A stretch of DNA of 64,000 bases from Eledone cirrhosa. Taxonomy: Eukaryota. The stretch lies in assembly GCA_964016885.1 (NCBI GenBank), contig OZ024741.1:35154001-35218000 (forward strand). Reading direction: 5' to 3'. The notes beneath the pieces are model-generated. The model ran no database searches. It saw only the letters and a program-made list of their open reading frames with translations, and was not told where the DNA came from. Of the stretch, positions 43,801 to 46,800 are shown piece by piece (the first letter of the stretch is position 1; every line of letters starts with the position of its first letter). A program made the translations under genes and the position numbers.

Positions 43801-46800
43801 TCACCACTCTCTCAAATACCTTAATGATATGAGAGGTGAGTGAGATTGGACGGTAATTCACGGCAAGGGATTTGTTTCCCTTTTTGAAAACTGGGACAAC
43901 AGACTGGGATAGAAGGTTTTCTGGCACATATCCAGCATCCAGTGAGTTCCGCCACAGATTGGCAAGAGGAGATGCAAGTTGGTGTTGACACGCCTTCAAG
44001 ACACAAGCAGGGAACCTATCGGGACCTACTGCTGAATTATGCTTGATTTCCTTTATTGCCGCCAAGACATCAGGGGCGCCAAACGTTATGTCCGATAAGG
44101 TGTAATGGGGAGTAACATCGCCGATACAGCCCAGATCGGCCATATCAGGATTGCTGAAAACAGAGCAGTATTGTTTCTGCAGTATCTCACCCATGGTTTT
44201 AGCATTGTCTTGAAGAGTGCCATTTTCATCAATTAGAGGGCCAACAGTAGAGCCAGTGATTTTGTGTTTTTTTGCAAATGAAAAGAACACTTTGGGATTG
44301 AGTTTGATCTTCTCAATGGCCCAGGCCTCTTCAGCTCTTCTCTGATTGTTGATGAGGGACATTATGTTGTTTTGGAGGTTATGTTTTTTAATCTCTAGTG
44401 ATGAAATGGCAGTCAAGTTGATGTGTTGCTGCTGACAGTATTTCAGCTTGTTGATTTTTTTGTTCGTTCTCTTAATTTTTCTGATGAGCGCTTTTCTATT
44501 TCTAGGGATTCTGCTCTTAGATTTGTTTATAGTTCTTAATGGGGTGTGTTTAGCACATATGTTTGTAACAGTGTCCACAAATGTCTGCCAGGACTTTTTG
44601 ATGTTAGTGGGTGTATGAGTGTGCGTGAAGGACCAGTCGACATGTGCAAGATCATGACTGATCGCTTCCCAGTTTGCATTGTGGAAATCCATAGCGTCAA
44701 ACGGATGGACAGGAGAGATGACATTGGGTTTGTATATTGGACGGTGGAATCTCAGATCACAGAGAACCATGTCATGATCAGAGAGTAGAGTTTTCTCCAC
44801 TGCAATATTGTGGATATTGTCAGTGTGATTGCTGAAAATTAAGTCTAGGACGTTTTTGTGGCACCTCGTTGGTTCGAGCATCAGTTGGGATAGGAAGAAA
44901 TCATCCATGAAGTCAAGAAGCGATTCCACAGCTTCCCTGTCAGAGGTTGAGGCAGAAGAACCTGGTGGCAGGCTGTTTGTGGACCAGTCAACTCCGGGGA
45001 GGTTGATGTCCCCCATCATTAAGATGTTGTCAGGGTGACACTCTTGGATGAAACACTTTATGCTGTTGAGGCATTCCTTGAAGCATGGTACAGGCGTTTG
45101 GGGTGGCCTATAGAGCCCAACTACTAATAGGTTGTTGGTTTGACTGAATACAGTGACTGCTTCACAGTATCCATTAGTGAATATGTTCATAGCCTCTGTT
45201 GAGAAAGAATTATGGACATAAATGGCAGTTCCGCCCTTTCTTCTGCCAGCGCGATCAGCACGGATGGCTTTGAAATTTTTCACTTTCACCTCGGCTTCCA
45301 AGTGGAGGTTACTGAGATGGGTTTCAGTGAGGACGAAGAAAGGGATGTGGTTTGGATGGACATCAATCCAGTCCTCCAGGAATTTGATCTTCCATTTTTG
45401 AGTATTGGTGGAAGGGCTGATGCCTTGGGCGTTAAGCAAAAATGTAGAGGCGAGAGTGGATGGTTTTAATTGTTTTGGTGTGTTGTTAATTTGTTTGTTT
45501 GTTAATGGCAGCAATGGGAGTTTGTGCAGTGGGGTGATAGTGGAGGGTGGTGCTGGGTGATAGCTCGAATGTTTTTTTCCAGTTCTTTTGCCAGATTCAT
45601 TATGGCTAAAAAAGAGGAAGAAGTTTCCTGTTTAGAAGACTGTTGGTGACTGTGGTAGTGGTTATTTTTATGTAGGTTATGGTTTTTGTTTTTGCTTTTA
45701 TTTTTAATTTTATTTTCATTTGTCCGACGGGTCCCCGGGAGATGGGTAAAGGGACAATCCCGGTCTAAACACAATCTGTCTCGCAGGGAAAAGCGGCAGA
45801 TTTGTGGATTCCTTGTTTGAGTTATTGGTGGTTGTGTTGGTGTTAAATTAGAGTATGTATTATGGTGGTGGCTGTTTGTGGGGATAGATCGTTTTGTCCT
45901 AGGTAAATGGGTGAATTTGCAGCCACTATCTGTAAATATTCTATAGCGTAGAGAGTAGCGGCAAATGATGGGGTTTCGAGTGGGTGGGTATGTGGGTGTG
46001 TGTGTTGTGAGAGGTGTAGATGATGGTTTGGGTAGGATTTGACGACCTTTGTGGACTGTGGGAGGGAGAGTTCTTGTTCTGGTATTAGAAGGTAAATTCC
46101 TTGACATAGCAGTAGACAAAAATGTTGTAGTAGTAGTAGTAGGCAGAGATGTTGGCAGTGGTGATGATTGGATTGCTGGGCCAGAGAAAGGATGTGGCGT
46201 TTCATGCTGTGAGACAGAGGCTACTGGGGGGTCAATAGTTTCATTTAGTAGATCGGCCATTGTTGATGAATCAAGGAGTGGTTCACACTGTTGTTGTTGT
46301 TGTTGCTGTTGTTGTTGATGTTGTTGCTGTAGCTGTTGTTGTTGTTGCCGTTGTAGCTGCTGTTGTTGTTGTTGCTGCTGCTGGACAGCATTCGAAGAAA
46401 AAAACACACCGTAGTTTATCCAAATGTTTATTGATTAATTTAAAAGCAATTTCGATTTGCTTTAATTTATTTTGAATCTGTTGTTCAGATCGAGTTTTCA
46501 AAAATTGAACTGTACGTTTAGCAATGTCGTTCAGAGATGAAGCATCTATGTCTTCTGTTTGGGAAAGGCAATGCCATGTGTTTATTAGAATGTCGATTTC
46601 ATTATCAGACCAGTTCTGTTTGGATTTTTGCTGGTTAGCCATTCTAGTTTTGAGTGTGTGTGTGTTTTAGTTAAGTATTTCAATATATATATATTTTTTT
46701 TTTAATTTATTTTTGATTTATTTTTGTTTTTTGTTTTTCTTGTGTGTGAGTGAGAAGAGTATATATATAAATATGAGTATATATATATATATATATATAT

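Follow-up and report, generated by a model that had tools for sequence, protein, structure and literature searches.

A conserved slip heptamer and predicted -1 frameshifting between ORF1 and ORF2 in a LINE clade represented in Eledone cirrhosa

How ORF2 is translated from a bicistronic non-LTR RNA is an old open question, which has been studied mainly in L1 and SART1 and there as a matter of initiation. Another route is given for the Dictyostelium elements TRE5-A and TRE3-A, for which the figure legend of a review states that a -1 frameshift is required for ORF2 (PMC5911963). Only HeT-A, TART and L1 are named as non-LTR elements in the accessible text of a frameshifting review (PMC5009743). 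According to the available part of a further source, a -1 signal is defined by a heptamer of the type X_XXY_YYZ in the zero frame, the standard signal includes a 3′ structure (a stem-loop or pseudoknot 5-9 nt past the heptamer), and both GUU and GGA are tolerated as XXX (PMC3542737). Viral slip sites include U_UUU_UUA (HIV) and G_GAU_UUU (pea enation mosaic virus), again as stated in the accessible review text (PMC5009743).

Here, we analyzed a LINE in the window, i.e. the whole stretch of 64,000 nucleotides of Eledone cirrhosa DNA under study, together with related elements in the same genome and in metagenomes. An initial annotation of this single copy had inferred a retrovirus-style -1 frameshift leading to an ORF1-ORF2 fusion and had set it against the initiation mechanisms of well-studied LINEs. 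Comparative sequence strongly supports the inferred frameshift in 13 of 13 families, while the contrast stands for L1 and SART1, which initiate ORF2, and is too sharp with regard to TRE5-A and TRE3-A (PMC5911963). We put at roughly 80% the probability that ORF2 of these elements is made by programmed -1 ribosomal frameshifting at one conserved heptamer, as a predicted ORF1-ORF2 fusion.

Organization of the element in the window

The coordinates, phases and motifs reported initially (the TAA ahead of the ORF2 frame, the ORF1 stop and both heptamers) hold, all of them on the minus strand, and are listed with the other features of the element in Table 1. ORF1 of the family to which this copy belongs (family A) starts at ATG 46642 and consists of a weak Myb/SANT-like N-terminus, a polyQ stretch, two Cys3His-type repeats and a predicted C-terminal helix. 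The label CCCH-like was given to the repeats by eye, no Pfam match was found for them, and the helix was called amphipathic from the residue pattern. The ORF2 frame of the window copy extends from 45631 to 42821 and encodes an APE endonuclease and a reverse transcriptase (RT; PF14529, PF03372, PF00078). LNAQG at residue 66 and the subsequent LTETHL are located ahead of the first Met, which is only residue 148. That no ATG precedes the endonuclease, as first reported for this copy, is confirmed, and this is a trait of the family.

In the window copy ORF1 is broken, the T run at 46404-46398 being one base out of phase compared with 16 of 16 other copies spanning it, and ORF2, which ends prematurely, is one base short near 42836 compared with three copies. 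In the natural copy L247, ORF1 begins at the ATG that matches 46642 and is 381 aa long, and the -1 frame comprises 1039 codons counted from the slip site.

Table 1. Features of the LINE on the minus strand of the window (positions refer to the window)
Feature	Position	Strand	Remarks
Full-length copy of family A, a young APE-RT LINE	42407..46780	-	Between (TA)n tracts; 5′ end approximate
ORF1	45502..46642	-	381 aa in natural copy L247
Two ORF1 repeats, C-x(7-11)-C-x(3-4)-C/x-H type	45736..45966	-	Align with Cys/His array of relatives
Last stop of the -1 (ORF2) frame, TAA	45632..45634	-	6 codons upstream of slip site
Slip heptamer U_UUU_UUA, conserved, ORF1 Ser-Phe-Leu; predicted frameshift site	45607..45613	-	
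ORF1 C-terminal segment (19 residues), conserved, predicted amphipathic helix	45556..45612	-	In unshifted ORF1p only
Second heptamer A_AAA_AAC	45571..45577	-	Not conserved, probably incidental
ORF1 stop TAA	45502..45504	-	36 codons past slip site; overlapping AUG absent
-1 frame linker, 60 codons, rich in Pro/Ser/Thr/Lys	45434..45613	-	Joins slip site to endonuclease; 0 Met, 0 stops
ORF2 endonuclease and reverse transcriptase	42821..45436	-	First Met 45190; family stop near 42495
3′ UTR	42407..42494	-	Short inverted repeat and two-copy 10-nt tandem tail; poly-A absent

Several further observations concern the ends and surroundings of the element. A 626-nt repeat is present in two copies that are 98.4% identical and inverted on either side of the LINE (41325-41942 and 47265-47890), one of them abutting an N gap (about 47064-47264); the pair may have arisen by fold-back duplication or may be an artefact of the assembly. 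The front of ORF1 varies among relatives sharing the Cys/His array and the slip site (window 46642-46400; L188, L197, L200), with a Myb-like match below cut-off in family A and PHD matches below cut-off in three of four relatives, the three being metagenome families, and the length of ORF1 ranges from 381 to more than 990 codons across relatives. At its end, ORF1 carries a Cys cluster, which reads HCCH in family A and subfamily C (window 45510-45502) and HQCCC in family E, where it overlaps the first endonuclease codons (L138).

The 3′ ends share a layout of a G-rich motif, a short inverted repeat ending near GAAAC or AAAAC, and a tandem tail with units of 5-10 nt that differs by family (window 42494-42407; L189, L193, L197, L200, L201, L233, L236). 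A short tandem tail, as present here, is also a feature of CR1-group LINEs. A TA-rich microsatellite is located directly at the 5′ junction in 23 of 30 position-ordered family A copies (L031-L060), and most full copies, those of subfamily C and families D and E (L233-L249) included, are bordered by (TA)n on their 3′ side. These LINEs may possibly target microsatellites.

Conservation of the heptamer within and between families

Family A is large, with 777 genome matches to an endonuclease motif, and young, as 40 of 40 scored matches were about 100% identical over the junction. Conservation in other copies, which the initial annotation had proposed as a check, bore out the first heptamer (U_UUU_UUA): the six-T run is kept in 94 of the 100 copies listed of 589 flank matches, the others having five T (three copies), seven T (two) or eight T (one). 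In the seven-T copies among those listed (G000:C1:205950416 and C1:270456137), ORF1 and ORF2 would share one frame.

The older subfamilies B and C were located by endonuclease patterns. In these subfamilies, the -1 frame has a stop 4-6 codons upstream of the first heptamer, and the indels between this heptamer and the endonuclease are multiples of three. Contigs of four sequencing runs over 45150-46000 also show a diverged subfamily. The C-type set comprises 19 loci, six of which stop short of the first heptamer and five short of the second (A_AAA_AAC). Because the first is intact in 12 of the 13 C-type copies reaching it and the second in only 4 of 14, the first is regarded as the candidate site and the second as incidental. 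The second heptamer also has no counterpart in families D and E or in the metagenome families described below; thus, of the two slip heptamers proposed initially, one is retained, being also the site found in the 13 families, and the other is not. In the window overlap alone (132 nt), at least two in-phase heptamers were obtained in 436 and at least one in 2784 of 10000 dinucleotide shuffles, so that the pair is mildly above chance in the window sequence by itself; the first heptamer is above chance because it is conserved across families.

For more distant relatives, an initial homologue search yielded two proteins only, and a protein atlas contained generic endonuclease-RT clusters and nothing more specific. 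A homologue search in 1.84 billion representatives revealed called N-termini with Phe-Phe followed by Arg, Ser or Ile, which corresponds to the -1 reading of U_UUU_UUA. This signature, picked after viewing the sequences, occurs in 7 of 19 protein-only homologues called at least 55 aa ahead of the endonuclease (shuffle mean 0.9), and it is absent from the called part in 12. Two protein homologues used as queries led to two further families in the genome, D and E, whose endonucleases are 28% and 33% identical to that of family A, respectively. Both have T TTT TTA in ORF1 phase; 76 (D) and 64 (E) codons separate it from the endonuclease Asn, and this interval is free of Met. A strict intact-site pattern for family E was matched by 12 of 30 position-ordered copies, the others being mutated or truncated.

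A metagenome scan keyed on an endonuclease motif, with the junction playing no part in the selection, resulted in 17 loci, of which L187 was left out because its contig ends before the junction. The 16 loci reaching the junction represent 10 families, and in all 16 a long ORF1 overlaps the endonuclease frame at -1. After merging the near-duplicates L190, L192, L194, L195, L197 and L200 as well as subfamilies B and C into their own families, the set comprised 13 families, three in the E. cirrhosa genome (A, D and E) and 10 from metagenomes, with endonuclease identities of 28-70%. Named relatives are gene models only (Argonauta hians, Bolinopsis microptera, Gadus morhua), the closest by RT being the A. 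hians model with 61%. A close relative in marine metagenomes clusters at 90% with the G. morhua gene model (P0008 cluster, P0162), for which horizontal transfer or contamination would be conceivable reasons. Scans for related loci in metagenomes with a single protein, in viral contigs and in prokaryote genomes were negative, and a pattern for TETW-type families gave 0 matches.

A slip heptamer in ORF1 phase was found in 13 of 13 families, namely U_UUU_UUA in eight, G_GAU_UUU in four and G_UUU_UUA in one. In an unguided MAFFT alignment, the Phe of the site occupies one ORF1 column in 14 of 14 rows, past the Cys/His array, where the helix-like segment begins. This Phe is encoded by TTT in all 13 families versus 175 of 444 in the background, and the site Leu by TTA in all nine families with a Leu ending the heptamer (background 87 of 1090) and by CTN in the four families whose heptamer ends one codon earlier, at Phe. 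Among the other Phe-Leu pairs of the same elements, 0 of 47 form such a heptamer. Given the amino acids, the chance of the heptamer per family is 0.003-0.32 (sum of log10 -18.9) and that of the open -1 frame under synonymous redraw 0.024-0.59 (sum of log10 -15.5), whereby both sums overstate independence, since these families share ancestry and no more than two changes on the tree are required to account for the three heptamer types. Taken singly, the open -1 overlap is unremarkable in families A and D (0.25 and 0.59). As judged by comparison of the sequences, these values point to conservation of the site at the nucleotide level beyond protein constraint.

In each of the 13 families, the 60-118 codons of the -1 frame past the site are free of stops, whereas the 34-100 codons upstream of the site contain 3-13. 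In 11 families no ATG precedes the endonuclease Asn; in-frame linker ATGs occur in the other two (L198 and L199/L200), one of them five codons before this Asn. The trait appears to be more general than the single-copy observation and to depend on one heptamer, not two.

Predicted fusion protein and alternative explanations

In the proposed mechanism, the majority of ribosomes would stay in frame through Phe-Leu and synthesize ORF1p complete with the predicted C-terminal helix (381 aa in copy L247), while a minority would slip back by one base on U_UUU_UUA and proceed through the 60-codon linker into the endonuclease and reverse transcriptase. The fusion, predicted from copy L247 to have 1384 aa, would retain the N-terminal and Cys/His domains of ORF1, with a flexible linker replacing the C-terminal helix. 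A low slip rate would give a high ORF1p:ORF2p ratio, and a low rate is suggested by the lack of local 3′ structure: folding in comparison with shuffles (nested structures only; z -1.8 to +1.3) revealed such structure in none of the 13 families. The GCCA..UGGC hairpin, which the initial annotation had seen as a weak downstream element, is no stronger than shuffles in the window copy (z 0.02 and -0.33). A local hairpin was thus rejected as stimulator, folding behind either heptamer being no better than in shuffles. The slip site of alphavirus 6K/TF is of the U_UUU_UUA type, as is the heptamer of Semliki Forest virus. For this virus, the accessible text of a review describes a 3′ stimulator whose effect is independent of mRNA pairing (PMC5009743).

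As a variant of the frameshift reading, the trigger may be long-range pairing of the 3′ end of the element with the bases just behind the site, a feature of some plant RNA viruses. This pairing was analyzed in 8 of the 13 families, those with a 3′ end. It appeared promising with the site side fixed, since in several families windows 60-90 nt from the 3′ end were among the best few out of about 310. In the reciprocal control, in which the tail was kept constant while the query moved along the element, p was 0.02 for L200, and 0.05 and 0.10 for two subfamily C copies, but the signal was lost overall (combined p 0.21 for eight independent families, 0.45 for the window). Subfamilies A and C show no compensatory change, their tails being identical at this place. 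Such a trigger is therefore unlikely.

Separate synthesis of ORF2 by reinitiation or internal non-AUG initiation near the ORF1 stop, with Phe-Leu being kept for the ORF1 protein, agrees with the finding of no stimulator in 13 families and with the ATG located 16 codons past its own ORF1 stop in L198. There is also precedent, as ORF2 of L1 is described as being initiated without dependence on its AUG (PMC5009743) and SART1 uses reinitiation (PMC10275272), both according to the accessible text of these sources. However, separate initiation does not account for an open -1 frame that starts at the site, 35-96 codons upstream of the ORF1 stop, or for the choice of TTT and TTA codons and the swap to G_GAU_UUU. 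A stop-start overlap of the SART1 type (UAAUG) is also absent, the TAA at 45504 being followed by CA. We give this explanation only a slim chance.

Use of the site as a 3′ splice acceptor, in which U run and AG would allow a spliced RNA to join an upstream exon to the ORF2 frame, is highly improbable. The heptamer of family A does sit in a pyrimidine tract ending in AG, and 6 of 13 families have an AG after the run, but it is absent at the homologous site in the other seven and purines precede the run in families D and E. No joint was seen there among the rows listed for contigs of four runs over 45150-46000, which is weak evidence with the run type unrecorded.

Slippage of RNA polymerase on the T run, by which one added U would bring ORF1 and ORF2 in frame in some transcripts, can draw on the six-T run in 8 of 13 families and on seven T in 2 of 100 genomic copies listed, yet it is very improbable, as the G_GAU_UUU families have only four T, losses (3) are as common as one-base gains (2) among the 100 listed copies, and new copies would contain the added base if ORF2p works mostly on the RNA that encodes it (cis preference), whereas 94 of 100 listed have six T.

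Programmed -1 frameshifting might extend to an old animal LINE clade, from octopod to comb jelly, in which RT would be made only as a Gag-Pol-like fusion and without local RNA structure; this wider reading is tentative, and we consider it rather doubtful. The mid-ORF1 switch would then trade the C-terminal helix of ORF1p for the enzyme, and slipping could be driven by the nascent chain, by unstructured 3′ bases in the ribosome, or by the Cys/His fingers of ORF1p binding RNA, i.e. by feedback.

Implications and comparison with known systems

A seven-base site is kept across families that are 28-70% alike in the endonuclease and is swapped among three viral heptamer types. If the frameshift reading is true, ORF2p of this clade would be an ORF1 fusion, gene models begun at the first Met would miss the first endonuclease motifs, and the clade would supply numerous natural sites of frameshifting that lack a local RNA stimulator.

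LINEs of the CR1 group (CR1, L2, Crack, Daphne, Zenon) have APE and RT in ORF2, as found here (available parts of PMC13343379 and PMC4120745), and the elements described here are provisionally assigned to this group by their domains and general features. ORF1 of the families described here combines a Cys/His array with a front that weakly matches Myb or PHD, whereas ORF1 of the CR1 group has an esterase or RRM+CCHC; the types described altogether are RRM+CCHC, PHD, esterase and L1-like (available part of PMC4120745). Zenon is given as having no ORF1 and a poly-A tail in the accessible text (PMC13343379), and identity with Zenon is excluded by the presence of ORF1 and of a tandem-repeat tail. 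The terms 'CCCH', 'overlap' and 'frameshift' are absent from the accessible main text of the two CR1-group surveys (PMC4120745, PMC13343379), and literature listings and abstracts that were searched contained no account of such a site for LINEs of the CR1 group.

TRE5-A and TRE3-A of Dictyostelium are APE-type non-LTR elements like family A. They differ in being amoebal and targeted to tRNA genes and in having an oligo(A) tail and a zinc finger in ORF2, as far as described in the available part of the review. Mammalian L1 and silkworm SART1 share with the elements analyzed here a bicistronic non-LTR RNA and a non-standard route to ORF2 (accessible text of PMC5009743 and PMC10275272). In L1 and SART1, however, ORF2 is initiated past the ORF1 stop, whereas here the frame opens 36 codons before it, with a conserved heptamer and no ATG.

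The viral -1 sites of HIV-1 gag-pol and pea enation mosaic virus have the same heptamers in the same phase with the enzyme frame at -1, and like them the LINE site would fuse a structural protein to a polymerase, a fusion that is predicted here. Unlike the viral sites, it belongs to a non-LTR element and has no local structure predicted by nested folding, Semliki Forest virus being closest in this respect, and three candidate heptamer types interchange at one position.
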